Shown piece after piece: positions 7,947 through 63,668 of a stretch of 64,000 nucleotides of DNA. Source of the stretch: Lytechinus pictus (taxonomy: Eukaryota); contig NC_087251.1 of NCBI RefSeq assembly GCF_037042905.1, positions 45,510,001 through 45,574,000 on the forward strand. Reading direction: 5' to 3'. The position numbers and the translations under genes are program-made. How positions within the stretch are numbered: position 1 is the first letter of the stretch; each line of letters begins with the position of its first letter. Under the pieces are notes generated by a model. It ran no database searches and was not told where the DNA came from. It saw only the letters and a program-made list of their open reading frames with translations.

Positions 7947-9429
7947 CATGGTCTTATCCTTGCCCCGGGGACTTCAGACCTCAACATGTCTTCAGACAGT
8001 AAGGTCTTATCCTAGTTTATTCACTGATAATTTGTCAACTTCGAGACTGGATATATCACTTACTCTTTATGATATTAAGATGAACTATACAGTGTGTTTC
8101 AATAAAAAAATACATTTTTGGAAAAGCTGTCATGTTATGTCAAGTCATGTTACAAATAATTTGATATAGGTAGATGTTCTAAAGTCTTCTCTTTATCAGT
8201 AAGAAACAAAAATGCAACCGAGTGATGCAGGTTAACCATAGGCGGATCCAAGCCAACACCCCCCCCCCCTCTATTGGCAGAGCAAATAAAGGAAAAATAG
8301 GACAGAAAAAAAAAGAAGAAGAAAAAAGAGAGAAAATAGGTAGAGCAAAAAAAAAAATACTAAACCGAAAACAATATATAGACCTCTTTTTCTACCTCTT
8401 GTTTTCGCTCTGTTATTGATCTAGGAGGCCGAAATGAGGGCCAAAACGGTCACCCATCCTTATCACCCCACTTCCGTTGGCAGAGCTTAAAAAAATGGAA
8501 AAGAAGAGAAGAGAGACAAGAAAAAGAGAAAAAACGGAAGACAGGAAATCAGCCAAAAATACAAAATAATTATCCAAACGCCTTTCTTTTCACTCTCCCG
8601 TTTTTTTATTTGGGGGGGGGGGGGCTCTCTGTTAATATAGGAGGGCGACAGGAGGGCTAAAAGTGGTGCCCTTGTCTCTTCCTTTGCGGAGAAAAAGGGA
8701 GAATGGGAAAAAGAGAGGGAGAGAAAGAAATAAGGCAGAAATAAGAAAACAGAGGGAAAATAGCAAAAAGAGAAAAAGAAAGAAGAGAAAAAAGAGAGAT
8801 ATAATACTAGATGAAGCAATCAAGCTAAATAAAAAAAAGAAGACGAAATGAAAATAAAAAGAAAAAGAGTTAAAAAAACATGAAGTTTTTAGCAACACGA
8901 CCTTGTTTTGGCACTTGTTTGCGTTTGGGCGAGTGTGAGCCTGTGGTCAATCTGTCACCACCTTGCAAAACAATAAGTAACATGATGATACATTACAAAA
9001 CAACGGCGATCCGTTGCTACGATGATGCGCTCGTCGAGACCAGTGGGCAGTGGACCATGTCTTCGTCTTCCCTTGTTTAAAACTTCTAAGATCTGGAATT
9101 TGTGACAGTGCAGTGGACAGAAAGCCTATGACGATGCGGAAGACACTAAGAGAAAGACGAAAGGTTATTCACTTTTTATGCTGTTTATAAACCTTTTGCA
9201 CTTATTCCTATGTCATTTTGATGCAAAGTATTGGTCACAATTTCTGTCCTGAAAGGGCATGCATGCTGATCATCATCTTAGGTGTAGACATGACCACATC
9301 CCTTCTGGATACTTTAATTTGCACCTCCAATGGTTAAACGAATAGCCATAAAAGTAGTGAACGTTCGGTCAAGATATTTGTAGTCATCACTTTTTTTAAA
9401 ATTTCAGTTCACAGATTTCTTTTTCTTTT

Positions 9430-10140
9430 GCCCACCAGATCAATACCCCAAAGACATCGCAACCGAATTCAAGATTGTGGTTCTAGAAGAGGGCAAAATG
9501 TAAAGAAACGTCACAAGATGAGGGTAGGTGTTATCGTGTTATTATTGCATATCTTCATCGTCTTGGACAGCGATTGGGAGTTACGTTATGAAGAGTTCGA
9601 CCTTCATTGCCGCATTCCAAACAGTTCTGTACCTATTCGGATTCACATTTGGTCTGAGCAGGAACTTACAAGGAACTTATGTGGATTTTGTTGCAGCCTA
9701 TGACCGAATCAGTCAAGTCAAAGAAGAACTGACGAAAGTCAGAACCAAAGCCAAGATATCTTTCAGAGGTGTCTGGAAAAAAGCTGAGTCCATGTCCATG
9801 ACAGCAGGTGAAGTCATGTCAGTTCCTCGTACATGTCAGAGACAGACCCTTCGAAGTATCACTTCCCGGAAAGGGGCTTGCACTTTCTACAGACGTACTA
9901 TATTCCTACCATTCCTTGACAGTCTGTTGCAACAACTGGCATACAGATTTGAAGGATTGTCTGCTTCAAGGGATGCTGTTGATTGCCTAGGATGATACAC
10001 AAACTTACTGGAAACATGCAAGACAGACTGATTGATTTCTATGGGCCAGATCTACCATTTCCCAGAGTGGCATCACAGGAAATACAACTTTGGAAACGTC
10101 ACTGGTTAGTATTGATGTACTAAAGTTTCCGAGAATGCCT
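9430..10140 (+). pseudogene. hAT transposase fragment (P52rIPK/ZMYM1-like, Tip100 group)
   Basis: LSRNLQG..DFVAAY..I..VKEEL..R, VPRTCQRQTLRS, FYRRTIFLPFLDSLLQQLAYRF motifs; truncated both sides. Confidence 0.75.
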
Positions 10141-10159
10141 TGAAAAAAATCTTGGTGTG

Positions 10160-10307
10160 TGTAATGTATGTACGTATACTTGTATTGCGCCATCTACTGT
10201 TGAGATGTGATACATTTGTGCTAGTCGATTGGCACCTTAATAAAGACACTCTGCAACTGTATCTCTTGGAGTCAAGAAGTATCTTTTATTGTGCTCGTCA
10301 CATCACA
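10160..10307 (+). repeat. 5' LTR of Gypsy element A (148 bp)
   Basis: TG...CA, internal AATAAA, immediately followed by PBS TGGTGTCAGAAG (complement of tRNA-Leu 3' end) and a gag ATG 49 bp later. Confidence 0.8.
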
Positions 10308-10356
10308 TGGTGTCAGAAGGTTTTAAGAACCAGCGCTTTCTTGAGAATTTATAACT

Positions 10357-11433
10357 ATGTCGGGTCTGCGACCTCCTGGACAACTGTCCTTTGAAGGGAA
10401 CTTGTCCAAGAATTTCAACGATTGGATACAGGAATTTAACGTCTATGAGATTGCTACTCAACTGACGGAGAAGCCGGAGATTGTCCGGTGTGCAACTTTT
10501 CTCCACGTGGCAGGGCCACATGCTCAGGCTATATGCCAAACTTTTCAATTTGCGGATGACGAAAGGAACAGGATAAATGTCTTGAAGCTGAAGTTCAGAA
10601 ATTATTGTGAACCTAAAAAGAACACAACTGTGAACAGGTATTTGTTCAATACCCGCAATCAGCATGATGGTGAGCCTTTTGCTAAGTTCCTGACGGAGAT
10701 CAAAAGACTCGCAAACGACTGTGAGTTTGAGCAACTTGAAGAATCCCTACTGAAGGATCGCATCGTCTGCGGAATAAGGGATCAAGCGCTCCAGGAAAAA
10801 CTCCTACAGATCGAGAACTTGACTTTAAAGCAGTGCACAGATATGTGTACTTTGGCAGAAGTCAGCGCCGAGCAAGTGAAACAGCTTTCCTCGCACAATG
10901 ACGGCGTCGAGAAAGGAGCCGTGGATGCCATCGACGCAAGGCGCCGAGGACGTGAAAGCGCTAGAGGGCAGCGAAATGGAAATGGAAGGGATGGAGACCA
11001 CAGCTCGAAGTCATTCAGGCGAGATCAACGTCATGAACGTGGTCGACGTTATCCTGAAGATAAACGCCAGACACAGGCAAACTGTAAATACTGCACATAT
11101 CGACACGCAGATGCCGACAGATGTCCAGCCGAATTTGAGAAGTGCAAATCCTGTGGACGAGAAGGACACTTTTCGCGATCAATGTTGTGCCAGAACAACA
11201 ATCAACACAGACGGAATGACAGCCGCCGCGATGACGATCGCCGCCGTGACGATGATCGCCCCGCCGGGAGACGACAGCGACAACGCCGTGACGCAGAAGT
11301 CCGCGAAGTGAGAGCTGAGATGTACGAGGAAGATCAAGAGACTGAACACCTTAATGAGGATTTTGAGACATTATACATCGATGAGATATCGATCGGAGAA
11401 GAAAAAGGTGACAAATGGACGCAATCATGTCAG
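10357..11433 (+). mobile_element. Gypsy element A gag (retrotransposon gag + CCHC knuckles), truncated at start of protease
   Basis: F..YCEPKKN....RYLFNTRNQ..GE...FLTEIKRLA..CEF...LKDRIVCGI; C-x2-C-x3-H-x5-C and CKSCGREGHFSRSMLC knuckles. Confidence 0.85.
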
Positions 11434-14080
11434 ATAGAACACCCCAACAGCATCCATACCCTTCCTGATTTCACAGTTTTACAGAAGAAGCGGAAGAGAG
11501 TCGGATCAAGTCCCACAAAGGAGCACTGTGGAGTTCATGGCACGAGAACTTGGGGCTTTGGCAGAGCTGCAGACAGCGGAAACTCTTCTGTCTACGAAGG
11601 ATGTTACCATGGGCTTCGATGCCACCACCCAGGAGGAAATGCATATCAATAGCGTGCACTTCACTACAAAATAATCTTGTCTTGCTGCAGCTGTAGATGA
11701 ATTAGCTGGCGGCACGGCAGATGATTATGCCCAGCACATTTGCGACACAGTGGAAAATTTATGTCAAACCTACTGCTATTTCAATGGTGCTGACTTACAA
11801 GAGACCAGAAAAAAGATGATTAACAACATTTCCAATACCATGTCCGATAGGTGTGCTGCCAACCACACTGCCATAAGAGTGGTAAATAGTGAGTGGGGCA
11901 AGACATTAAATGAACTTAATTGCCACCTCCATCCTCTAGATTCCATTGCATCCTCTGTTCGTTCTGCTCTTAAACATCACGAGGAATCTATAACACGCAA
12001 GGTTTTTGGGAAGAATTGCTTAGCAGCTAATATCATACTTCAAATGAACAAACTGCGCTACAAAAAAAGGAGATCCTCGTGGATTCATAGCTTTCCTTGA
12101 TGACAAGAAAATACCACGTGGTGTACTTCCTCGCTACCGTGGAAATCGTCTACATATCATCTTTCACATTGGTGGGAAACTTGTGGAACACTATGATGAC
12201 TTTCTCACTCTGCTCAGGACCGGGACATCATGTGGTGGCTTGCGAGCTGCAATTCTTCATGATCTCACCATGGACCAAGCAAGATCTGAGCTTCATGTGC
12301 TGGGCATTCTCGGAAAGCATTTGACAGGTCCATGGATGAGGAAATTTCACACGTCAAATGAGAATGAGCTCAACCATGCTGATTACATTAGAGTTGTCGA
12401 AGTGGTCATTGTGGCCCTAAAGGAAGCCGCTAGTCATCCAGAGAATATGCTTTACGCAACAGAAGATTTCTTCGGTGCGCAACTTCAGATTGACACAACC
12501 CTGCAGGCCTGGCGAGAATTTGAGTACGATGACCACCAGTTCTCTGCTATGATGAGTAGTAGCCTCCAGGCAATCGTCGATGTCTTGGAAAGACAGTATA
12601 GCAGGTACTTTGATGTTGATATCACAGAGAAATTACGGGAGGAAGTAGCGTCTACCAGATCCCACAATATCGACGCAGAAGAATTAATGGGTATGTTCAG
12701 CTCGCTCAAGAAGAAAGCCCCAAATGCCACCATGTGTTAACTCTCTTGCCGGATGCGTGCCTGTAAAAATAAAACAGTCCAGTATTTGGACAAGTTGGAA
12801 GAGGGCAGGAAAGAGGATGTCCTGCAGAAAGCTGTGAGATGGGGAAGAATGCAGAGGAACAGGAGGAAAAAGAAACAGAGAGAACTGAGAAAAGAGATCA
12901 TGCGAAGACACAAGGAGAAAGAACAGTCACATCAAACAAAAGAAAGAAGAAAGCTGGAGAAAAAATTGAAGGAAACAGACATAGAAAATGTTAGGGAGGC
13001 ATTTCCTCATCTGGGGTTTTCAGAATCAAAGTGTGAAATTGTGAAAGCTATTCTGAATGGTCAAGTTATTGGCAGAAAAGCCTGCCATGCCTGGTATGAA
13101 CAACAAAAACTAGAAGTGTACAATGCAAAGTGTGAGAAACTGAAAAATGAAATGTACCGGATGGCATATTGGTCACAATCAGACAAATATGATGATGCTA
13201 CTGATTACAACATTTCTATGTATCGGCTTGCTGCTGACGTCTTGTATGGAGATCTGGTCTTTTGTTAAACAGCTGTTTCATGAGTGTACTGTTGTTTTCA
13301 TCAGTAACAAAGTTGCTATTTTGTCATGCTTAATTAAGGTGATCTACTTGTATTTTTCTTCTAAATGAAGCTTTAACATGGATCAATTATCAGTAATGTT
13401 ATTAATTATTCTGAATTTGTTGATTGACTGTTGATACAAACACATCTGAAATTAAAATGCATTTTATACAGTGGAAACTCAGTATAATGAGGTCCTTGGG
13501 ACCATCAAAATTTCCTTGTTATAGCAGGAATCTCGTTATATCAGGGTTAAAAAAAAAGAATATAAAGAGCTGGGACCAAAATATTATCTTGTTATATCAG
13601 ATCTCTTTATACCGCGTTTCCACTGTATCATATATGTATTTTTTTAAATCGGGAATTCCTAAAGTCGAATAGCAGGATCTGGTTACCCCAACCTTAATTA
13701 GTTAATTAATTACTAATTGATTAATTAGTTGATTAATTATTAATTAATTAACTAATTACTGATTTTGTAAATTATTGTCAATTTCATATATAATTAGTCT
13801 GCCAGAATATTTTTGCCATGAAAGAGGCAGTTGTAAAGCCTTTCTCCTTAAATTCGCATCAATTCCTATGAAAGCTATTGCATTAATATGTGTTAATTAA
13901 TTAATTAATTAATTTTTCTGATGTTATCTAGAAGTAAACTTGATAAAATGGATGGCCTTGTATTCAGCATATACCTTACTATCATCCCTGAAAGTTTCAT
14001 GTAAAAAAATCTTATTTCATAAGGAAGTTATGTTCTTTTTCGTTTAAAAAAGTGTACTTTGGTCACAGTTGTGATCACAG
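11434..14080 (+). mobile_element. 5'-truncated DNA transposon with a decayed hAT-related DDE transposase (11434-13268)
   Basis: Across stops/frameshifts: VTMGFDATT (D1), NTMSDRCAAN (D2), LNCHLHPL (CxxH), SHNIDAEELMG (E); candidate right terminus GGTCACAGTTGTGATCACAG at 14061-14080. Confidence 0.65.
13469..13625. mobile_element. Tc1/mariner (Tigger-like) MITE nested in the DDE element
   Basis: TA|CAGTGGAAAC ... GTTTCCACTG|TA. Confidence 0.75.
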
Positions 14081-14314
14081 CTTTTGTCTTTCAAAACAAA
14101 GGATAACATAAGAATTAAATCGACATTTTTGCGCATTGGAAATTGGCGTAACTTTTTTATTACTGGGACTATATGGATGAATGAGGTATCAAATTAAAGT
14201 TCTTGCTGAGCTCAAAATGATGGTACCAAAATTATACACTAATATTGATTTTTCATTTTTTTGTAACATACCTATATCATATTTTTCTGTTCTCCCTTTT
14301 TGTCTTTTCTGTAG

Positions 14315-15997
14315 ATGGAGGAAGCGTTCTATCTTCCGCTACCCTCTGATGGGGAACTTGAGGGCTCCGTTGGAGAGGAGGACGGCCTGATCTCTTCTCT
14401 GGGCCACACTGACCTTGGGACAGGTGTTCAGGACCAAGGCGAAGGGGTAGAACCCGCCCCTTCACAGGTAATGGGGGCTGGGGAGCCGGTCAAGGTTCCA
14501 TCAGCCACTGGGGACATTGCGGGGGCCCAAGCGGCACCCATCACAGGGGGAACTCCACGAGCGCCTCCAGGGTTTGAGGAAATGGAAGGGACTAACCGGC
14601 CCATCCATGAGAGGCAAATGCGCTGTTTGGAGGCATTGGAGTGGCTCGTGCAGGGCCAACTCCTTCCATATAAGAATACATATGATTTATATAGCGTCTT
14701 TTCGATTTTGATTAAATGCTCAAGGCGCTTTGAAGGAAGTAAAACATTAAAGTAAAGAGAACTAAGAGAATTACAAAAAAGGGTAATTAAAAATGACGAA
14801 AAATGACTGTCTTCAAACCTAGTACCTGCTGGTAAACAAATGCAATTTTAGGTTGCCCTTAAAGGATGTTGCAGAGTTTGAGTTCTTCAGCTCTTGTGGT
14901 AGTGAATTCCACAGGGCTGGTCCGGCACGAGCAAAGACTTGATCGCCCCAGGATTTTTTAGATAGTGGGATATGCATGAGACTAGATTGGGTTGATCGCA
15001 GTGTGCGTGCAGGTTGATAGTGGTGTGTAAGAGACTTGTTGTAATCAGGTGCGGATCCATTGATGATATGATGAACCAAAAGTAGAATTTTGAAAACTAT
15101 GCGATCCTTTATCCGGGCGCAATGATTAGGATGGCCCCATCTGCGCTACCCTGGGATTTTTGGAAGGGGCATATGCGCATGCGGTGGAGATGGCGTATGC
15201 TGGTTGGGTCTGCTGTCTACACGAATACCTCGCGGAACGGCTGTCCCCAGGTCAAAATGGGGACCGGTTCCCTTTATTGGATGGAGGGGGTGGGAACGAT
15301 GGATTGGTGTTTCTTTACCCCGACACTCCCTGGTGGGAACCCGCCATGGAGCGGCAGCGTCACCTCTGGCCTACCTGCCTCACTTCGAGGGAGGGCATCG
15401 GCGCCATGGGTCCAGGGTGAGCGGGCGCGCCACCAACTGCTAGAGGGGGAGCATCGGCTACCCCTGCGGCACCGAAGGGCCCGGCTCCGCCCCCGGTTTG
15501 GAAACGAACCCAGGGGCTTAACCCGGAGGCTGGGCGTGTTTCTTTTGAGGAGGTCGCTGCAAAGCCCCCCATACCTCTGGCCGTGGACAGTCTCTTCCAC
15601 CTAGATTTCCTGGAGGGTCCTCTTGGAAAGAAGGGCTGGAGGTGTGCCGAGTTGACATCGGGCAGGGAGCCTCGGGTCCCAGTCTGTCTAACCGGGGGTG
15701 TCGCGAATTTCTGCAATCACCAGAGGTACAAGAACATCGTGTTCCCGGAGGGTCGTAACTGGAAGGTCTCGGTGGGGGGTACTCCCCTGCTTCACTTCCA
15801 GTTTCGAGGAAGCAGACTTAGATGCCCTGGGCCGACTGGCCTGTGACCCTAAGACAAGCGCGCTCGGGGAGATTGGTTTGGATCACTCTCTCCCGCCCTC
15901 GACCCGGTCGAAGCAGTTGCTGGTCTATACGACCATCCTGGAGCAGGTCGGGGCTACTGGTAAAGTCCTCGTACTGCACCTGCGGGGACAAGAGGGA
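14315..15997 (+). pseudogene. TatD-like nuclease ORF, 5' copy, with long N-terminal extension; split by a LINE fragment and ended by Gypsy insertion
   Basis: Acceptor-like TTTTCTGTAG|ATG at 14315; GC-rich coding-like DNA resumes at ~15113; VDSLFHLD (degenerate DxHxH), GGVANFC, ALGEIGLDH, VLHLRG. Confidence 0.65.
14672..15112 (-). mobile_element. 5'-truncated LINE (L2/CR1 group) 3' end
   Basis: RIVFKILL...APDY...RTLRS...WGDQVFARAGPALWNSLPQELK..FKGNLKLHLF followed by 3' UTR with AAAGCGCCTTGAGCA...CGCTATATAAAT tail motif. Confidence 0.8.
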
Positions 15998-17819
15998 TGT
16001 AATATACTGTCAACTCACTATTTCATATTCTGTAGGCTGTTTTCTAATGCCTATTCATAAGATTAGTCCATTCTGTATCCTTATATATTAAAGAGAAAGT
16101 AACTTCTACTGTCATGACTCATTACTGTGGAATGTATCTTAACCATGGGATTGACCACTGGCATTCTGAATAAACCACTTGAGCTTAAGTTTTCATACTA
16201 CCAAGACATGTGTACCTGTCTCTCTCCTTTGTATTGAGTAATATAAAGGGTTGCTGGAACTGTTTGACTATTGAAATATTATAGTTTGTCCAGTATATAA
16301 AATTGGCGACAAGGATTTAACGAATTCTCCACGATGGCAGTGTACGGAAATATTGGAAGTTTTGAGGAGTCAATTGAGTCATTTGATGATTATTCGGACC
16401 GCATGGATGCTTTCCTTAGTGCCAATGCAATACCAGCAGAGAGGCAGGCTAATCTTTTCTTGGCTAGTGTCGGTCCTGTGGCTTATAAACTCCTGAAAAA
16501 CCTTTGCAGCCCAAGTCAGCCCAATACTAAATCGTATGAGGAGCTTAAGCGGTGTCTTAAGGAACATTTTAAAGTTTTGGACGGCTCAGCAAGGGGAGAG
16601 GGAGACAGTAGCAGACTTCATCGTTCGGCTGAAAAATTTGGCTTGGACGTGTGACTTTGGAGCTTTCCTGTTGGAAGCTCTTCGAGACAGATTAGTTTCA
16701 GGACTCCACCAGAAGATGTCACGTACCCAATGGCAGCTTCTCGCCATAAGCTTAACTTTTGAGAGTGCTAGGTCCCGTTGATGATGAGATGGCTGGTGCT
16801 GCTAATAAGCAGCACATGGGACCAGCAGTGGCCAGCAGTGAAGTTCATCGTGTAGCATATCAGGGGCATTACCAGGGTAACCGACAGTTTCCAAGGAAAT
16901 CACCTGGCGCATCCCCTCCTTGGAAGAATTCGTCTTGTAAATGCTGTGGAGGAGACCATCCGGCGGATAGATGCCGATTTAAGGACGCCACATGCCACAT
17001 CTGCAAGAAGAAGGGACATATTCGTTCTGTGTGCCGATCGAGGAGACGGGAAGAGGGACGAAACCAGTATGTTGCCCAAGTGCCAGATGGAATAAACTCT
17101 GACTCAGAAACAATAGTAGACCATGATCATGATGATGATGTGAATTATGTTGAGAGTAGTTTTGGATTACACAATATTGAGGGTGAGTGCAATCATACAT
17201 CTTTGCCTTATTATGTACATGTTAATATAGGTAGTACTAGTTTGGAAATGGAGGTAGATACCGGGGCGGCACGATCAACGGTGTCGGAAGTCGTGTATCA
17301 GTCTGAATTACCGAGATACCCTCTTCGTAAACCCAATATAACTCTACGTAGTTATTCCAAACATGTCGTACCCCTTCTTGGCTGTATTACTATACCTGTG
17401 GTGTATAATGGGGGGAGGACGGTGATGCTAGAACTTCTAGTAGTAAAGGGCAGAAGACCTGCCCTGTTTGGGAGAGATTGGCTAAACAAGATAAAGCTGG
17501 ACTGGAAAAGCATTTTTGCCATGCAAAATAAAATTTCTGTAACAACAAAGGAACAAAAGAGGGTTGATCCCAGCATAACAAGGGACAAGCTTAATGCTTT
17601 CCTACTAAACATGCAAAGTTGTTCAAAAAGGATAAGACTGGAATAAAAGGGTTCACTGCATCCTTAAAACTGAAACCGGATGCAAAGCCTTGCTTTCAGA
17701 AGGCTAGACCAGTCCCTTATTCCCTGGTGGAAAACGTAAATAAAGAGTATGAGAGACTGGTAAAGGATGATATTTTCTAGCCTGTCACTCACAGCGAGTG
17801 GGCGTCACCAACTGTTCAT

Positions 17820-18790
17820 GTGTCTAAAGCACAGGGTGCCATTCGCGTGTGTGGTGATTACAAGAGAGTGAATGAGGTAATCGAGGATGATGGTTACATA
17901 TTGCCAAATGCACAAGACTTGTTCGCAAAACTTGCTCAAAACGGTACCACTCCAAAAGTGTACTCGGTCATTGACCTTACTGGCGCTTTCAATCAGCTTT
18001 TTCTGGATGAAGAATCTGCGAAGCTTCTTGTGTTGAACACTCACAAAGGTTTGCTCGCACCAAAGCGTTTGTGTTTTGGAGTCAAAACAGCGCCATTTTT
18101 GTTTCAAGCTACCATGGACAAAATAATATCAGGCATGCCGAATGTCTTCTGCTATGTTGATGATATACTTGTGGCGACAGAAAGCATTGACGAGCGTATG
18201 AATGTACTCACAGAGTTATTTGCCAGGTTAACTAAGCATAATGTGCGGCTAAATCAGGATAAGTGCAAATTCCTACAATCCAAAATCAGATATTTGGGGC
18301 ATATTCTCACTGCTGAGGGCATTGAACCGATTCAAGACAAAGTTGAAGCCATTAACAAAGCCCCCAAGCCTAAGAATGTATCTGAATTGAAGTCTTTCCT
18401 AGGAATGATTAATTACTATGGCAAGTTCATTCCAAATCTGAGCACCGAGCTCCAGCCCCTCTATGCATTACTACAGCACTCAACTGAATGGAAATGGTGC
18501 AAAAGATGTGAAGCCGCGTTCACATATGCGAAAAAGGCCCTTGCTAGCGATAGGGTTTTGGTTCATTATGATGCTTCAAAGCCAGTTGTTCTAAGTGTGG
18601 ATGCGAGTCCATATGGATTAGGGGCAGTTTTAAGCCATAAGCTTGCGGACGGTTCAGAAAAACCGATTGCCTATGCTTCTAGGACTTTGAATGCTGCAGA
18701 GAAAAATTATGCACAAATTGATAAAGAGGGATTAGCTATTATCTTTGGGGTGAAAAAGTTTCATCTGTACTTGTATGGTCGGGAGTTTCC
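17820..18790 (+). pseudogene. Gypsy B pol: reverse transcriptase and RNase H N-half
   Basis: IRVCGDYK, IDLTGAFNQL, RLCFGVKTAP..FQ, YVDDILV, LKSFLGMINYY; upstream in-frame TAG and frameshift. Confidence 0.9.
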
Positions 18791-19421
18791 ACATGTTCAT
18801 TCAAGCGTGAATGTTTAATTAAACGCCTTTGAATCATTGAAGCATGTTAATTGGTCATGAACATAACGAAAAAGTTGAGAAAAGATCATTTTCAGTTACC
18901 AAAATGAAACAGTACATGCCTATGATATTTGAAAATCATATTTTTTGTTTTCAATAAATGTTCATTGAACCGTGAAACGATGAAAATTGTTGAAGATACT
19001 CTTCCCAAATATAACTGTCATCATATTCTATCATTTTTATTGATAAAAATGTGTAAAACATCCAATTATAGCAAATTTGGACTTGTGTTTATTCAACCGT
19101 GAAATTTAGCCAAAAAAGTTGTATCGTCTTTTAGAAAGTACCTTTTACAAGTCTTCTGACTATTTTTCATGATGAGAATGTGGAATTAGTTCCAATAAAA
19201 TGGAATCAAAGTAATGATATTTGGCTTGTGACTTTTGAAAAGTGACATTTTTGCCTTCTGACGGTGCTCACTGAAGCATGGCGTAAAATACGTCCATAAC
19301 TTTTACTCAGAGGATAGCTTATAAAATTACCTACACGCTCATGTAAAAATATATTAAAAACTCGCATCGGTTCGGAAATTATTGATGTTTGTTTAAGGGG
19401 GGACTTACTTTTTTTGTTGTG
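18790..19421. mobile_element. One-ended non-coding DNA-transposon fragment replacing Gypsy B integrase/3' LTR
   Basis: Abrupt switch from RNase H coding to AT-rich DNA; ends GGGGGGACTTACTTTTTTTGTTGTG|TA at a TA inside the 3' LTR. Confidence 0.5.
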
Positions 19422-19466
19422 TATAGTTTGTCCAGTATATAAAAAGGGACAAACTTCTGATATCCC

Positions 19467-20238
19467 TTCCTGGAGGGTCCTCTTGGAAAGAAGGGCTGGA
19501 GGTGTGCTGAGTTGACATTGGGCAGGGAGCCTCGGGTCCCAGTCTGTCTAACCGGGGGTGTCGCGAATTTCTGCGATCACCAGAGGTACAAGAACATTGT
19601 GTTCCCGGAGGGTCGTAACTGGAAGGTCTCGTTGGGGGTACTCCCCTGCTTCACTTCCAGTTTCGAGGAAGCAGACTTAGACGCCCTGGGCCGACTGGCC
19701 TGTGACCCTAAGACAAGCGCTCTCGGGGAGATTGGTTTGGATCACTTTCTCCCGCCCTCGACCTGGTCAAAGCAGTTGCTGGTCTATACGACCATCCTGG
19801 AGCAGGTCGGGGCTACTGGTAAAGTCCTCGTACTGCACCTGCGGGGACAAGAGGGACAAACTTCTGATATCCCTTCTCGGATTGTCCGAGAAGCAACCAG
19901 GAAAAGGGTCAACAGATATCAGAGGAATCATATCCACTGTTGTACCCTTGGACCTCAAGAGGTCGAGGCTTGGGGAAAAGTTTTCCCCAACACCTACTTT
20001 AGCTTCAGCTGCATGGTGAAGCATTTCACTGGGGAGCAGTTGGACGCCTTGAGGAGGGTCCCTCTTGATAAGCTATTGCTGGAAACAGATTCTCCATATC
20101 TCCCTGTTGGGGGTGTCAAATTCATGACCCCTGCATATATCGGGGAGGTGGGAGAGCACGTCGCCTCAGCCCGGCGGATATTTTCTCACCCTCATGAAGC
20201 GAGCTAGGATTAACCATCTGGCGCTCTATGGGGTGTAG
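19467..20238 (+). pseudogene. TatD-like DNase, second (tandem-duplicated) copy running to the C-terminus
   Basis: ALGEIGLDH, VLHLRG, HIHCCT, YFSFS, VPLDKLLLETDSPYL, TPAYI; frameshift near 20180 then FLTLMKRARINHLALYGV*. Confidence 0.85.
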
Positions 20239-20479
20239 TGAGGAAGAAAAATAGCAGATATTGGTGACAACAGCAAGGTGAAGATGCCATGTGTGTACAC
20301 TGAGGATAATATCAATGTCAAAGGTTTACACATGGTCAAGCTATATGACAAAAGAGGACTGATCCACCGAAAAGGTTTTGACATCTCTGTGTTGAAGAAG
20401 TATACCAATCTGTCGAGTCATAAAGGGTTGTTTCAACAAAAACTGATTGGTCTTTGGTCTTATTGAGCAAGTTTTACAG

Positions 20480-20600
20480 GATTTGCCGGGAGTGCAGGCA
20501 TACTGGACGATATTCTTGTGTCAGGTCATTCAGAGGATGAGCATTTAAGAAACATGATAGAGTTCTGACGCAATTGGAAGAACGCAATTTGACACTGAAG
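20480..20600 (+). mobile_element. Gypsy RT scrap
   Basis: Degenerate LPGVQA.LDDILVSGHSEDEHLRN. Confidence 0.55.
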
Positions 20601-20609
20601 TGTGAATTT

Positions 20610-20870
20610 GCGAAAGAATTGGTTGACTGTTTGGGTCATGGAGGAAGGAGTACCTGCCTACACAATTCAATCGCGACAGAGATGGAACGAGCAGGAGAAC
20701 GATGTTTATGTGGGTGACATTGTCCACATTATGGAAGAATTGCCACATAACCATTGGAATATTGCTCATGTTGAAAAGTCTTTCTTAGAAGAAATGTTAT
20801 GGTAAGGTCAGCTCAAGTTCAAACCTAATATTCAACCCTTGTTGGGCCCATTCTCAAGCTGTATCTTTTG
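20610..20870 (+). mobile_element. BEL/Pao integrase C-terminal scrap
   Basis: FW..WRKEYLPT(I)QSRQRWNEQENDVYVGDIVHIMEELPHNHWNIAHVEK...VRSAQV. Confidence 0.65.
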
Positions 20871-21024
20871 GAATATTGACTGGATGTTTATTTTGTCTGT
20901 TGTGTTCGATTACAGAATGACTTTGCTGATATGTACAGATGAGTGATGATAATGGGTACTGGGCTGCCTGACGTCTTCCAGACTCAAGATGTCTATAGCA
21001 GGGCACATTATGGTTTAGAGCATA

Positions 21025-21323
21025 TATAATAATAATAATAATATGGTCCATTTATATAGCGTAGCTACTATAATTGCATATACTCTACTGCGCTTGATAC
21101 TTGGTATCATAATATTACTCCGGCTGTAGCTGAGCTGCCATATAGGCGCTAAAGCATTTAAGGAATAAATCCTACCGGGTACCCATTCACCTCACCTGGG
21201 TCGAGTGCGGCACAATGTGGGTACATTTTTTTTGATGAAGCAAAACACGCCACGGCTGGGGTTCGAACCCACGTCTCTCTGATTGAAAGACGAGAGTCGT
21301 AACCAGTAGACCACGACACCCCC
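21025..21323 (-). mobile_element. tRNA-derived SINE
   Basis: Minus strand GGGGTGTCGTGGTCTACTGGTT (A box) ... GGTTCGAACCC (B box), core CACTCGACCCAGGTGAGGTGAATGGGTACC, (TAT)n tail. Confidence 0.8.
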
Positions 21324-22688
21324 GGGATTTTCAGAAAATGCAAAGTGTTGTAAATCATAGGAATCACAGAGGATCTAGCAGAAGAATGTAAAAGAATACT
21401 AAAGAAGCCAAATGATATAATGTCTAATAAGAATCACAATCTCAACCTCCTGTTTAAGATCTTGCCTTCAGGAAGAAGGTTGGGTTCGATGAAGTGTCGG
21501 ACAAGTCGGTACTCAGACTCATTCATGGCATTTTCTATTTGGTTGCAAAACCCAATCGGAAACGTATGATCCGTGATATCGAATGTCAACAGTGAATATC
21601 ATTCAACTGGACAATTTATCAATTTGTTTTCTTATTCCACACCCCCTCTTATCTTTATATATTTTCATTATTTAAAATATTTTTGCTTTGGAATTGCATT
21701 ACATGTTTCTTCTCCGCCGGACCTTGCTTCCTTCCTCTTGCTATTGTGCAATACAGAAACATCTTTGAAATATTAATCTTAGAACATCTTTCTTTTTAAC
21801 TGGTTTACTTCTTATTTACAAATGCATTAGCAATATATTTTTGGGTTACAAATTTTCTTTCTGCCAGATTTCTTTCAAACAGTGCAATAAATAAGTATCA
21901 ATGGAATTTTCATTTCTGTCCAATTTCATTTAAACCCAATTGTCTCTACAATAATTTGATTCCTTTTTTTTTATCGCCAATAGGTTATAATATTCAATTC
22001 ACTAATTTCAATTACATTTCTCAAAAACCTTTAATTTATAAATTGCCCTTTTTCAACGTCATTTCATCATTTTTCTAGTTTTATATTAGTGCAATTAATT
22101 GTAAATATTAACTAAGCAGTGCCCTTCAAAGTGTATAATTTCAGCATTTTTGATGATATGTACTTGTTATATTATGGAATCTTATATGTGACCATGACGC
22201 ATTTCTTGTGCTATTATTGACAATAAAGAATAAATTGAATTGAATTGTCAGCGTAGCCTCATCTGGACCAATACCACGTGCTCCTTGACTGATTATTTAT
22301 CATCAGTAGGATAGTCACAGCCTACCTCCATTAGTCAGTATTTGGTCAAGCTGGAACGAAAATGTGCATTTTTGTTATCAGATGATAAAGAAGACTTTAG
22401 AGCATCTACCAATATCAAAAAGTCTCCTTCATATTCATACACAAAATTCTGACAGCTTTTCCAAGTAAATGTAACATGTTCTATACGCACTGTATAAGAA
22501 TCAAATTTTCATTTGACAAAGCGCAAAATGAGAAGCAGATGAAGTGGCGATTAGACCATTTGGGCATTAGACTAAATAACAAAGAGACTAAAGTGAAAGG
22601 ATAAAGAGCAAGTGTAGTGTAGACAAAACGGAAATTTGACCAAATCAAGACTAGACCAAATGGGCTAGCCAATGTGGTGTTAGACATC

Positions 22689-23655
22689 TTGTCACCCAAA
22701 TCCTGTTTCTGTAAGCATACTCTGCAACGTAACTACTGCATCACCTTCAATTTATGGCTGATGTAGCCAAGAAGAGTTAAACACCATCATGATGTCATGG
22801 TAGAGAGAGCAGGTCACACTGTCACCTAAATCCTGTCTTTGTAAGCATACGACGCAAGATAACTACTGCATCACCTTCAATTTATGGCTGATGTAGCCAA
22901 GAAGAGTTATACACCATCATGATGTCACGGTAGAGAGAGCAGGTCACACTGTCACCTAAATCCTGTCTTTGTAAGCATACGACGCAAGATAACTACTGCA
23001 TCACCTTCAATTTATGGCTGATGTAGCCAAGAAGAGTTATACACCATAATGATGTCACGGTAGAGAGAGCAGGTCACACTGTCACCTAAATCCTGTCTTT
23101 GTAAGCATACGACGCATCGTCTTCAATGTAAGGCTGATGTTGCCAGGTGGAAGCACACATCATCCTGATGTCATGGTTAAGAGAGCAGGTCACACTGTCA
23201 CCTAAATCCTGTCTACGTAAGCATACTCTAGTTTCAAACGTAACCACTGTATCAGCCAAGAAGAGTTATACAACACCATGCATGATGTCACGGGTAAGAG
23301 AGCAGGTCACACTATCACCTAAATCCTGTCTATGTAAGCATACTCTGCAACATAACTACTGCATCACCTTCAATTTACGGCTGACGTAGCCAAGAAGAGT
23401 TATACAACATCATGATGTCACGGGTAAGAGAGCTAGTCACACCATCACCCAAATCCTGTCTCTGTAAAGCATACACTCTAACGTTATTACTGAATCATCT
23501 CCAAACTATACTTGAAGGAACCAGGTGAAAGCATACAACAGCATGGTGTTATGGTCAAGAGAGCAAGTCACATCATCTTCAATGAATGGCTGATGTAGCC
23601 ACATGGAAGCATACATCATCATATGGTGTCTTGGTTAAGAGAGCAAGCCACACTG
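22689..23655 (-). repeat. Tandem array (~130 bp unit, ~7 full + 1 partial) derived from the CINP C-terminal codons and stop
   Basis: Unit starts at 22689, 22819, 22949, 23079, 23195, 23312, 23442, partial ~23571; each aligns to 23653-23766. Confidence 0.92.
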
Positions 23656-23852
23656 TCACCTGAATCCTGTCTCTATAAGCATACTCTCCAATGTGACGAT
23701 GGCATCATCTTCTATATATGGCTGATGTAGCCAGGAGGAGGCATACATCATCATGATGTCACGGTTGTCATGGTGAGCTACATCCTCGACGATCACCTTC
23801 TTGACCTCAAGTTCCTTCTGGTACATTTCTTGAAGATGCTGAGAGGCTTGAA
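23656..23852 (-). CDS. CINP: CDK2-interacting protein, exon 5 (terminal)
   Basis: ASQHLQEMYQKELEVKK...SWLHQPYIEDD...LESMLIETGFR*, matches the CINP C-terminus (WLHQPY, LESMLLETG); acceptor TTGCAG, phase 1. Confidence 0.9.
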
Positions 23853-28504: not shown

Positions 28505-30325
28505 AGCCTCGAGGGCTCCGTGATGATATTCAAAAATATTTTTACATATACTTTTACATTACGGAGCCTTGACATGCTGCGCATACATGTAAACACGGAT
28601 GGATTTCCCTACGAAATCCATCTTTAGAACTAGAAATCACTTATATTAGTGGGATTTTATTTTTCTATTAAACCTTCATACGCCTAATGCGTATGAAGGT
28701 TTGAAAAATCTCTTAGTATTAATATGAATAAGTGGAACGCCTCTGGCAGTCTCGCCTGCATTACGCGATTCGATATAGCAGCAGTGCTGAATTTGAAAAC
28801 AGCTACAGTGTATTAAATAATTAATCACAAAAGAAAACGCTCATATGATAATAAAATATTATGCCCATTGACCCAACATGACCTTTGACCATGATCATGT
28901 GACCCAAGACAAGTGCAAAACAATCATTCATACTTGATTACCCTTATGTCTATGTTTCATGAACTACATGTGTAGATCCATAAACTTTCTAATTCAACAA
29001 ATACCCACAACACGGCCAAAGTTCATTGACCCTAAATGACCTTTGATTTTGGTTATGTGACCAGAAACAAGCACAAGATATTCAGGGATACATGTACATG
29101 GTTACTGTACTCTTATGTCCCAAGTTTCATGAATTAGATCTATAAACTTTAAAGTTATGATGACAATTCCACCAATACCCCCAACATAATCAAAGTTTGT
29201 TGACCCTACATGACCTTTGACCTGGGTCATGTGACCTGAAACTCACACAGGATGTTTAAGGATACTTAGTTGCTCTTATGTCTAAGTTTCATGAACTAGA
29301 TCCATAAAATGTCAAAGTTATGACAATTTCACAAATACCCCCAACATGGTCAAAGTTTGTTGACCCTAAGTGACCTTTGACCTCGGTCATGTGACCTGAA
29401 ACTCAGGCAGGATCTTCAGTGATACACTATCACCCTTATGATCAGTTTCATGAACTAGGTCCTTATACTTTAGAAGTTATGACGACATTTCAAAAACTTA
29501 ACCTTGGTTAAGATTTCGATATTGATTCCCCCAACATGGTCTAGGTTCATTGACCCTAAATGACCTTTGACCTTAGTCATGTGACCTGAAACTCAGGCAG
29601 GATATTCAATAATACTTGATTATCGTTATGTCCAAGTTTCATGAACTAGGTCTATACACTTTCTAAGTTATGATGACATTTCCAAACTTAACCTTGGTTA
29701 AGATTTCAATGTTGACGACGCCGCCGTCGCTGCCGTCGGAAACGCAGCGCCTATAGTCTCGCTCTGCTACATGTATGCAGGTAAGACAAAAATAAGAGGT
29801 TTTTTACCAGACCGATCTCGTGTATCCATTTGTTAACACCACAAATACAATAGGCTTGACCCTTGAACCGCTTCGTTATGACGTAGCTTCGATGAGCTAC
29901 GTTATAAAATGCCATTTTGAAGAACAATTCAAATTTTATTATTTGTTAAATGATAATTTTTATCTACATGTAGGCCTATAAATTGTTCTTCAAAACGGCA
30001 TTTTGTAACATAGCTCATTGAAGCTACATCATAACAAAGCAGTTCAAGGGTCAAGCCTATTGTATTTGTGGTGTTTATGAATGGATACAGGAGATTGGTC
30101 TGGTAAGAAACCTCTAATCTTTCTTATACTAAGAGATTTTCAAACCTTCATACGCATTAGGCGTATGAAGGTTTACAGATAAATCAAATCCCACAAATCT
30201 AAGTTATTTCTAGTTCTAAAGATGGATTTCCTAGGGAAATCCATCCGTGTTTACATGTCTTGTATGTCAAGGCTCCATGATGTAAAAGTATTATTAAAAA
30301 ATATCATCACAGAGTCCTCAAGGCT
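28505..30325. mobile_element. Large fold-back (palindromic) element, left arm interrupted by an insertion at 28727-29790
   Basis: 28505-28726 is the reverse complement of ~30120-30325; 29791-29935 is the reverse complement of ~29978-30120. Confidence 0.85.
28727..29790. mobile_element. Helentron/HINE-like non-autonomous element with ~160-190 bp internal tandem repeats
   Basis: Subterminal IR GTCTCGCCTGCAT / ATGCAGGTAAGAC, A-rich ends without clear TSD, five units containing TGACCTTTGACC, GGTCATGTGACC, AAGTTTCATGAA. Confidence 0.65.
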
Positions 30326-36066: not shown

Positions 36067-36533
36067 CTATGAAAAAAAGAACAAAATGAATTTTGTCAGT
36101 GTACCAATGACCACAGCCTTAAGTACCTTACACTCCTACTGAAAAAATGTACCAATGACACTCAATTGCAACTATATACCATCAAATGTTCTGATGCAGG
36201 TAAATTTTGACCCAAAACACAAATAACACCTGGTTTCAAGGAAACATCTGCAAAGAATGTCATGCAAAGACTGCATGACATGAATCTATACAGATATACA
36301 AACTGATATGTGATTTATGTATACTGATCAATAAGATGAATTTATGTGGACAATTTATTTGGCTATTATTTTTTAGAAGTTATGTCATATGTATATTCAA
36401 TTTTTTCATAATAAAAAACATTGTTGAAATTTGAAATACCAAATATTTGCTTGAGAAATGTAAAATGAAGCAGAATGAGCCAAGTGGATTTCTTTTGTAA
36501 TTTTAATAATATTATACATGATTTATAGCCAAC

Positions 36534-36808
36534 CTTGTCCACTGTTGGTAGAGCGTCCTTGATGCTCTGAATTTCTTCTTCAGTAGGGGGCAGTCCGATG
36601 GCCCGTCGACGATAGCGGTCATGTATTGGGCACAACCTCAGGAGAGCGAGAGCCGTAGCTATGGCATAACCGCCCCAGTTACTGACTCCAGCACAGATGA
36701 GGTAATCCGTTGAGGTGACCGTAGCAATAATGTCGCCCTTCGGGATATGGCTCACCACTCTTTCTTTGACCTTGCCCATTCCTATCTCGTTACCGCCATC
36801 TCCAATCC
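36534..36808 (-). CDS. DGLUCY: D-glutamate cyclase, exon 9
   Basis: GIGDGGNEIGMGKV...AGVSNWGGYAIA hallmark motifs of the DGLUCY C-terminal (DUF4392) domain; 275 bp. Confidence 0.95.
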
Positions 36809-37000
36809 CTGCAAAAAATAATAAAAAATATTGAAGTCAAATTTTCCGGAACCAATGAAATAATTACTGTAATTTCAAAAGTTTACAATATAGAAAAAAA
36901 AAATTCACTGCTTTCACAGACCAAAGACGGTTTCAAATAGTACTGTAATTTCAGTTTATGGGCATTTCAAGTAAATAAACAACCTTTTTTGTATGTCCTA

Positions 37001-63087: not shown

Positions 63088-63668
63088 AAGAAGAAGAGGA
63101 AGGAGATAGAGGAAAGAAGGGCTGAGGAGAAGAAGAAGAAGGAGAAAGATAAGAAGAAGAAATAAAAAGGAGGAGTAGGATGTATGAGAAGGAGAAAGAG
63201 AAGAATAAGAACAGAGAAGAATAATTAAGGAGAAGAGGTGAGAGAGAAGCTAGGAGATGAAGGAGCTAGAATAAGGAGGATAAGAAGAAGGAAAAAAAAG
63301 AGGAGTAGGAGGAGAAGAAGAGGAGGAGGAAGAAGAAGGATAAGAGAGAGGAGAAAGAGAAGGAGAATAAGAAGAGAAGAATAGGAGGGAAAAGAGGAGG
63401 AATATGATTAGGAGAAAGAGAATGGGAGGAGAAAGGGAAGGAGAAGGGAAGGAGAAGGGGAGGAGGAATAAGACAAGAAGGAGAAAGAGAAGGAAAATAA
63501 GAGGAGTAAGGTATGAGAGGAGAAGATGATGATAAAAAGGGGGAAGAGGAAGAAGAAAACAAATTGAATAAAAAGGAGGTGAAGAGGATGAACAGAAGGA
63601 GAATAATTTAGAAGAGATAGAGTGAAGAAGAGGGAGGAGAAAGTAAACAGGAGTGGAAGAGAAGGGGG
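63088..63668 (+). repeat. Polypurine (GA-rich) low-complexity tract
   Basis: ~580 bp of almost only A/G (AGAAGAAGGAGAA...). Confidence 0.9.

Follow-up and report, generated by a model that had tools for sequence, protein, structure and literature searches.

The DNA window analysed here, 64,000 nucleotides (nt) of the sea urchin Lytechinus pictus (contig NC_087251.1, positions 45,510,001 to 45,574,000), holds a TatD nuclease tract within a nest of transposons. We identify this tract, very probably, as a remnant of the third open reading frame (ORF3) of a clade of Ty3/Gypsy long terminal repeat (LTR) retrotransposons of marine invertebrates. Its parts are given below, with amino acids (aa) numbered on the closest intact relative, an 862-aa L. 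pictus protein (XP_063964571, here P0020); RT is reverse transcriptase and LINE a long interspersed nuclear element.

14275–14314, plus strand: 3′ splice-acceptor-like region derived from the element, with a pyrimidine tract and a TAG that abuts the ORF3 ATG; the remnant begins here.
14315–14671, plus strand: ORF3 aa 1–119, an acidic low-complexity N-terminus, 73% identical to aa 1–119 of P0020.
14672–15112, minus strand: LINE-like fragment of 441 nt, a later insertion in ORF3; GC 0.38, shift of 441 in the alignment diagonal, very high depth in the read mapping.
15113–15420, plus strand: ORF3 aa ~120–232 with three small frameshifting deletions, from the P0020 alignment.
15421–15997, plus strand: ORF3 aa ~544–735, the start of the TatD barrel (HxH with its first His lost, FC-x-motif, GEIGLD, LHLR).
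15998–19444, plus strand: broken, unrelated Gypsy element inside the TatD domain, with RT and RNase H Pfam matches and an AGGGA target duplication (15993–15997 and 19445–19449).
19445–20238, plus strand: ORF3 resumed at aa ~735–742, returning to aa ~606 through a 407-bp tandem duplication and running on to the stop at 20236–20238, with GEIGLD, LHLR, HIHC and ETDSP present.

All three pieces of the tract are collinear with P0020, at 73% (aa 1–119), 80% (aa 137–206) and 82% (aa 600–843) identity, and the only large extra DNA relative to P0020 consists of the two transposon insertions. The initial annotation, which had described a GC-rich coding tract running from an acceptor-preceded ATG through a long N-terminal extension into a TatD fold, interrupted by a LINE scrap and a Gypsy element, is borne out in part. 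GC is 0.60, 0.61 and 0.54 in 14315–14670, 15113–15997 and 19467–20238 against 0.37 for the window, Pfam TatD_DNase matches at 19461–20204 (E 1.4e-25) and 15692–16057 (E 4e-9), and the first piece belongs with the TatD domain in a single protein. The LINE label is that annotation's own, together with a LINE-like look of the minus-strand ORF; the fragment has no RT match in Pfam.

The claim that the coding sequence is continuous once the insertions are removed does not hold. Five small frameshifts set it apart from P0020: deletions near 15148, 15360 and 15395, a single inserted nucleotide near 15776, and one more frameshift near 20185. A deletion of ~925 nt near 15420 removes ~aa 233–543, the whole of a Cys/His domain described below, and the 407-bp tandem duplication has left two copies (15607–15997 and 19467–19856) that are 97% identical. 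The first His of the metal-binding HxH motif has become Leu (DSLFHLD), and this copy has neither the intact frame nor the HxH of a Group II TatD. As read from these lesions, the tract is a real but dead gene: a pseudogenised, LTR-less ORF3 remnant unable to make protein.

The left edge of the remnant is set by contigs of a related organism, which part at 14274/14275: one matches from 14275 onward with 102 other letters before it, and another follows the window only to 14274. On the right, such contigs fall to zero depth from 20284 to 20717. The stretch behind the stop (20239–20750) has a primer-binding-like TGG at ~20262 and a weak Gypsy RT scrap at 20410–20639 (E 0.04); it also holds a scrap that looks BEL/Pao-like. 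A GGGG-TGTAGT sequence, which occurs once in the window, at the ORF3 stop (20230), resembles the LTR start of the clade and is indistinguishable from chance given the conserved Y-G-V-stop codons.

Because only a decayed piece is left in the window, finding it among other transposons does not in itself speak for an element origin, and the argument rests on its relatives. Scoring the TatD piece against 50%-identity representatives returned 425 proteins at E ≤ 1e-10, and the listing covers the 150 with the best scores. Among full-length proteins, those closest to the tract are sea-urchin gene models from L. pictus (XP_063964571, 84%), L. variegatus (XP_041478390) and Diadema (50%), and the named family members come from sea urchins, bivalves and gastropods. 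Two L. pictus copies on different chromosome-scale contigs are identical at 855 of 862 residues (99%), and an Elysia cluster holds 28 members. Long members share a Cys-Cys-His-His motif, then a helical region ending in P-x-NS...HW[RK], then TatD.

A metagenome scan gave 72 loci, of which four bacterial ones (L077–L079, L083) were set aside and 68 analysed; we infer that the latter are animal DNA. Among the 23 loci with at least 2.5 kb of upstream sequence, 19 have a pol gene upstream of TatD on the same strand, as searched with five pols of the same locus set and self-hits excluded; by contig prefix, the pol-linked loci come from about six sample sets. Pfam architecture, read on seven loci (L015, L017, L020, L021, L022, L031 and L038), is gag, pol, ORF3, with the pol order protease (PR), RT, RNase H, integrase in L015, L017, L020, L021 and L031. 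Gag comprises a helix-hairpin-helix domain (HhH; Pfam HHH_3), a capsid-like PNMA/Retrotrans_gag domain and a zf-CCHC knuckle, the latter two lying upstream of pol in L015, L017, L022, L031 and L038. The seven aligned pols are 56–65% identical to the first and therefore form one clade, which may already have been named from its RT. All seven also carry a conserved Cys-rich LPCGGC-x-YC stretch, with no Pfam label, between RNase H and integrase.

The integrase ends in a PHD finger (L015, 5930–6100, and the pol ends of L017, L019–L022, L031 and L038), in the place that a chromodomain takes in chromoviruses. It is closest to the PHD fingers of CXXC1, BPTF and PHF2 (E 2e-17 to 6e-15), which are readers of H3K4me3. 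Two loci, L031 (8.9 kb) and L038 (8.8 kb), close into circles with gag, pol, ORF3 and a single LTR-like spacer; this spacer, between ORF3 and gag, comprises a purine tract, an LTR-like stretch that begins with TG, and a site resembling a primer-binding site. A polypurine tract followed by a TG start occurs in 19 loci, eight of which also have a primer-binding-like TGG. No paired LTRs with a target duplication were seen in these contigs, each of which has one collapsed LTR, and LTR length in intact relatives is ~190–320 nt. As reconstructed from these relatives, the intact element reads LTR, primer-binding site, gag (helix-hairpin-helix, capsid-like, zinc knuckle), a PR-RT-RNase H-integrase-PHD pol, ORF3, polypurine tract and LTR.

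Gene models add to this linkage. P0280, from a Strongylocentrotus purpuratus cluster, carries the same HhH gag ahead of ORF3 (E 1e-33 to the gag of L038), and the window segment 15113–15420 matches its N-terminal ORF3 part (E 4e-8); two Mytilus models join pol pieces to ORF3. The Gypsy inserted at 15998–19444 belongs elsewhere: its RT is only 31–32% identical to that of the TatD-bearing elements, so it represents a different family, and it accounts for the only pol matches in the window (29–30% identity to the clade pol).

The reconstructed ORF3 protein consists of a variable N-terminus, a ~150-aa Cys/His-plus-helical domain and a C-terminal TatD nuclease of Group II (HxH) type. Its active site is retained across the family: the HxH histidines and the E, H, H, E and D residues are kept in 177/183, 176/183, 214/221, 212/221, 215/221, 213/220 and 210/220 rows (95–97% of ungapped rows; these counts include duplicates between loci and proteins), as expected of Group II TatDs. 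A structure predicted for P0103, a compact member, is a TatD triosephosphate isomerase (TIM) barrel with a predicted local distance difference test score (pLDDT) of 93.7, matching 6l25 at Z 29.3 and a root-mean-square deviation (rmsd) of 2.7 Å over 250 residues. The Cys/His domain alone is likewise predicted to fold well (pLDDT 92.3, predicted template-modelling score 0.87). In 13 of 13 copies it matched no Pfam family above the cut-off; its best PDB match reached only Z 3.4, and no viral fold was found at E ≤ 0.001. On these predictions its fold is possibly new, an absent match being no proof of novelty. A zf-MYND assignment was considered and not accepted (ESM Atlas clusters under 0.9, low recognition).

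The ratio of nonsynonymous to synonymous substitution (dN/dS) could be taken on 17 sufficiently close locus pairs. Synonymous divergence is saturated in ten, and the other seven give 0.10, 0.11, 0.16, 0.25, 0.43, 0.46 and 0.70, so that four of the seven measurable pairs lie at 0.10–0.25. The TatD domain thereby shows the sequence signature of purifying selection, and neutral cargo is for this reason an unlikely description of ORF3. The TatD domain also partly co-diverges with integrase: trees of the two from 12 loci share four of nine splits (p 6e-4). Mean identity is 34% for ORF3 and 64% for integrase.

We then placed the family relative to host and bacterial TatD proteins. The tree holds 92 rows out of 369 extracted domains (quick IQ-TREE run, LG+G4, SH-aLRT support only) and is rooted on 22 bacterial rows; its TATDN2 rows come from molluscs, arthropods and vertebrates, with no echinoderm TATDN2 and no TATDN1 or TATDN3. 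One clade (98) is made up of 50 family rows and a second (95) of 18 of the 19 host TATDN2 rows; the two fall on the non-bacterial side (96), and P0225 and P0233 are unplaced. Within this sampling the family does not nest in host TATDN2. The window copy and the Lytechinus proteins form one group (100) within a subclade of 33 rows (95) that contains seven pol-linked members; P0065, a cluster-mate of P0280, shares a six-row clade (95) with the window copy. The phylogeny proposed with the initial annotation, run here with TATDN2 and bacterial TatD, thus puts the window copy outside TATDN2 and among pol-linked proteins, and the suggestion of a dispersed, element-borne TatD family stands: relatives are multi-copy, dispersed and directly behind a Gypsy pol. 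Its wording that this is not host TATDN is right as to the separate clade and wrong if taken to mean unrelated.

That relation is visible in the active site. The Cys of an FC[DN]P insertion is present in 189/213 family rows, 51/51 host TATDN2 and 5/89 bacterial rows; a second active-site Cys, in 201/221 family rows, is also found in 77/93 bacterial ones, so only the first is diagnostic of TATDN2. The two would correspond to human C538 and C656, as mapped through rodent TATDN2; the pair of active-site cysteines of TATDN2 is described in PMC10711561. Against the family profile, TATDN1 and TATDN3 score E 4e-14 and 3e-15, far weaker than YcfH (2e-33). Taken together, the sequences suggest that the ORF3 TatD descends from one old capture of a TATDN2-type host gene.

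ORF3 may have its own message. Of 19 loci, 11 have an acceptor-like site within 25 nt before the ORF3 ATG, as the window does, compared with 246 of 2504 other ATGs (p 4e-7; ORF3 starts chosen by hand). In 10 of 18 loci a donor-like GTAAG[TA] lies 150–260 nt into the LTR, a range set after the hits were seen; 3.6% of random windows contain one. Recurrence of both sites suggests translation from a spliced, env-style subgenomic RNA joining an LTR donor to an acceptor just after pol, in keeping with ORF3s generally, which according to passages of PMC5408684 are typically expressed from spliced messages. The earlier proposal of a spliced accessory ORF of either a retrotransposon or a DNA transposon is narrowed to a Ty3/Gypsy ORF3 with acceptor- and donor-like sites in its relatives, and the DNA-transposon half falls away.

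What the enzyme would do can be approached through its host relatives. In the passages concerned, human TATDN2 degrades R-loop RNA and hairpin RNA with little DNase activity (PMC10711561), and TATDN3 and YcfH are single-stranded DNA exonucleases and apurinic/apyrimidinic (AP) endonucleases (PMC10085689). Made from spliced RNA, the ORF3 protein would act in the nucleus and work like TATDN2, as a metal-dependent 3′ exo/endo-RNase removing RNA from R-loops or structured RNA. Its target would be the element itself or the active chromatin that the integrase would seek out through its PHD finger, and the outcome easier expression or integration of the element. By analogy, an R-loop or RNA nuclease aiding element expression or integration in active chromatin is the role we consider most plausible, at somewhat less than even odds. 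A fuller version is more tentative: an undescribed, old echinoderm and mollusc Gypsy lineage, with an H3K4me3-type PHD on its integrase and an R-loop RNase derived from TATDN2 and steered by a zinc-binding domain whose fold is possibly new, would enter active promoters and clear away R-loops or nascent RNA that stand in the way of integration or give rise to silencing, amounting to a transposon-encoded R-loop resolvase.

Two other roles for the same element draw on part of this evidence. ORF3 might be a nuclease directed against host defence: by degrading small silencing RNAs or the scaffolds formed by nascent element RNA, it would blunt silencing of the Piwi-interacting RNA type. The cutting of hairpin as well as R-loop RNA by TATDN2 would fit, a protein acting in trans could well be expressed separately in the manner of env, the divergence of ORF3 far outpaces that of integrase, and PMC5408684 considers a silencing-related role for bdelloid DEDDy ORF3s; the measurable pairs, however, are under purifying and not positive selection, and we give this role about one chance in four. 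Somewhat less probable still is a DNA-repair-type enzyme, a 3′ single-stranded DNA exonuclease or AP endonuclease that would tidy the ends of cDNA or the gaps left by integration, perhaps inside particles as a Gag-ORF3 fusion. The Group II enzymes TATDN3 and YcfH have such activities (PMC10085689, in part), the solved structures closest to the family are of YcfH type, an HhH motif is present in gag and one gene model joins gag to ORF3. Against it, TATDN2, to which the family is closest among host proteins, shows little nuclease activity on DNA, and the fusion is a prediction only; no TATDN2 entry appeared among the PDB search results, so the structural ranking is no argument against TATDN2 likeness. 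Roles beyond R-loop, anti-silencing and repair functions are less likely again.

The two remaining alternatives concern the identity of the tract. The tract might derive from a host TATDN gene, as a processed pseudogene or an expanded paralogue, and lie among transposons by chance; this would explain why database entries are named 'TATDN2-like' or 'tatD' and why the window copy has no pol or LTR. We consider it very improbable, as host TATDN2 forms a clade apart while the window copy nests among pol-linked members (in a tree without sea-urchin TATDN2), and the Cys/His domain of the family is not seen in the aligned host TATDN2 rows. Even less credible is cargo of the DNA-transposon-like element at 11675–13268, which adjoins ORF3 on the same strand: related-organism contigs split its sequence from the ORF3 start at 14274/14275, none of the fetched family proteins matches outside the TatD tract, and family loci are linked to Gypsy pol.

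Besides the donor range chosen after the fact, several observations weigh against an element-encoded, TATDN2-like ORF3. The window contains no gag, pol or LTR of the TatD-bearing clade, so that the linkage of this copy rests on homology, and four of the 23 loci (L055, L056, L068, L076) have no upstream pol. P0280 is an automatic gene model. Eight of the 19 ORF3 starts fail the acceptor rule; among the joints listed for raw RNA reads on 9000–22000 none enters 14315, and ORF3 splicing is seen in no read from any species. (Mean RNA depth over the ORF3 pieces is below 3 in these reads, similar to the flanks.) The quick SH-aLRT tree does not settle the branching among TATDN2, the element clade and the two outliers, and integrase and TatD distances are not significantly correlated (Mantel rho 0.08, p 0.34). 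Lytechinus copies carry Leu at the conserved GxHP His, and three of the seven measurable pairs have dN/dS of 0.43–0.70. Finally, TATDN2 needs its own long N-terminus for R-loop binding and is weak on plain RNA-DNA duplexes (PMC10711561, in part), and the element ORF3 lacks that N-terminus. Weighing these points, we put the Gypsy-ORF3 explanation as a whole at a probability of roughly 0.8, a figure that applies mainly to identity; the specific role is much less certain.

Several family entries deserve separate mention. P0076 and P0284 (L. variegatus, 'mucin-17-like') are two near-identical copies of a second ORF3 lineage with some active-site changes, possibly decaying or repurposed. In P0225 the TatD is joined to an N-terminal Cys/His domain of another kind; this protein belongs neither to the element clade nor to TATDN2 and may mark a second capture. 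P0025, P0028 and P0054 are filed as TatD of a 'Sedimenticola sp. MAG' (metagenome-assembled genome) and clearly belong to the Gypsy-ORF3 family; the N-terminus of P0054 is shared with an ORF behind the pol end in L070, and these entries are probably host DNA in the bin. We treated three predicted proteins as chimeras: P0002 (TatD with alkaline exonuclease), P0078 (with sulfatase) and P0204 (with P450). In viral contigs we found bacterial-type TatD only (11 loci, 24–31%) and no pol relatives. The best 80 of 591 GTDB loci are all ordinary bacterial TatD, 23–34% identical to the family query, and on this basis we rejected bacterial DNA, whether as origin or as contaminant, as an explanation of the window.

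Elsewhere in the nest, an older Gypsy gag (10345–11652) adjoins the upstream ORFs of 11675–13268, which are on the plus strand, broken (141, 230 and 175 aa), without Pfam matches above the cut-off and transposase-like by impression alone; no terminal inverted repeats were found around them. Very high-copy repeats lie at 21029–21330 and 18820–19410 (depth up to 380,000 in the read mapping), the latter having replaced the end of the inserted Gypsy, whose 3′ LTR is reduced to ~25 nt. Across 9000–21000 the RNA reads map to a single strand, so the nest may be intronic. The sole host exon identified in the window, at 36369–36836 on the minus strand, belongs to a D-glutamate cyclase-like gene, and tandem arrays occupy 22690–23765, 28866–29715 and 63089–63667 (units of ~130, 160 and 185 nt).

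PHD fingers are already known in other retrotransposons, as are enzymatic ORF3s and chromatin readers on LTR elements; a TatD ORF3 in Gypsy is apparently undescribed in the literature searched, where we found no paper on it, Repbase, Dfam and subscription journals lying outside that search. Passage searches found no mention of TatD in PMC6238403, PMC8556966, PMC10294476 and PMC6338049; PMC6962438 has a TATDN2 gene only in a figure legend, and PMC12709183 yielded no transposon passage. The list of LTR retrotransposons whose third gene is an enzyme and not env is short; the family extends it with a genome-maintenance nuclease captured from a host, and the role of such accessory enzymes becomes testable through a well-characterised enzyme family. 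It also offers a ~150-residue Cys/His domain that is predicted to fold well and has no Pfam or PDB match. Many sea-urchin and mollusc genes named 'TATDN2-like' or 'tatD', and some of the 'Sedimenticola MAG' entries, are likely transposon genes and would inflate gene-family counts.

The ORF3 TatD resembles host TATDN2, as described in parts of PMC10711561 and PMC10085689, in its HxH, catalytic E/E/D, both active-site cysteines, FC[DN]P insertion and long N-terminal extension. It differs in forming a separate clade, in being a single ORF inside an LTR element, in its low identity (~22–28% to the window piece) and in having a conserved Cys/His helical domain in place of the disordered N-terminal region of TATDN2. 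With bacterial YcfH/TatD proteins (1yix, 6l25, 1j6o) the P0103 model shares the barrel (Z 28.8–29.3, rmsd 2.7–2.9 Å, 250–254 residues) and metal ligands, whereas these lack the FC[DN]P insertion and are distant in sequence, as the GTDB loci illustrate. Like chromoviruses and CopiaMBD, the element has a chromatin-reading domain at its integrase end that plausibly guides integration (PMC6673714, in part); unlike theirs, its CXXC1-, BPTF- and PHF2-like PHD would point to active rather than silent chromatin. The closest parallels are Juno and Vesta, the bdelloid rotifer LTR elements with a DEDDy exonuclease or GDSL esterase ORF3, which are likewise Gypsy-type and carry an enzymatic, non-env ORF3 with intact catalytic residues after pol (passages of PMC5408684). 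Their nuclease fold is DEDDy rather than a TatD TIM barrel, and those passages present their ORF3s as recent, family-specific acquisitions with mostly neutral intragenomic variation. Here, in contrast, one ORF3 clade spans echinoderms and molluscs, appears to be under purifying selection and partly co-diverges with integrase; kept under selection across phyla, unlike the bdelloid cases, this ORF3 is probably useful to its element.

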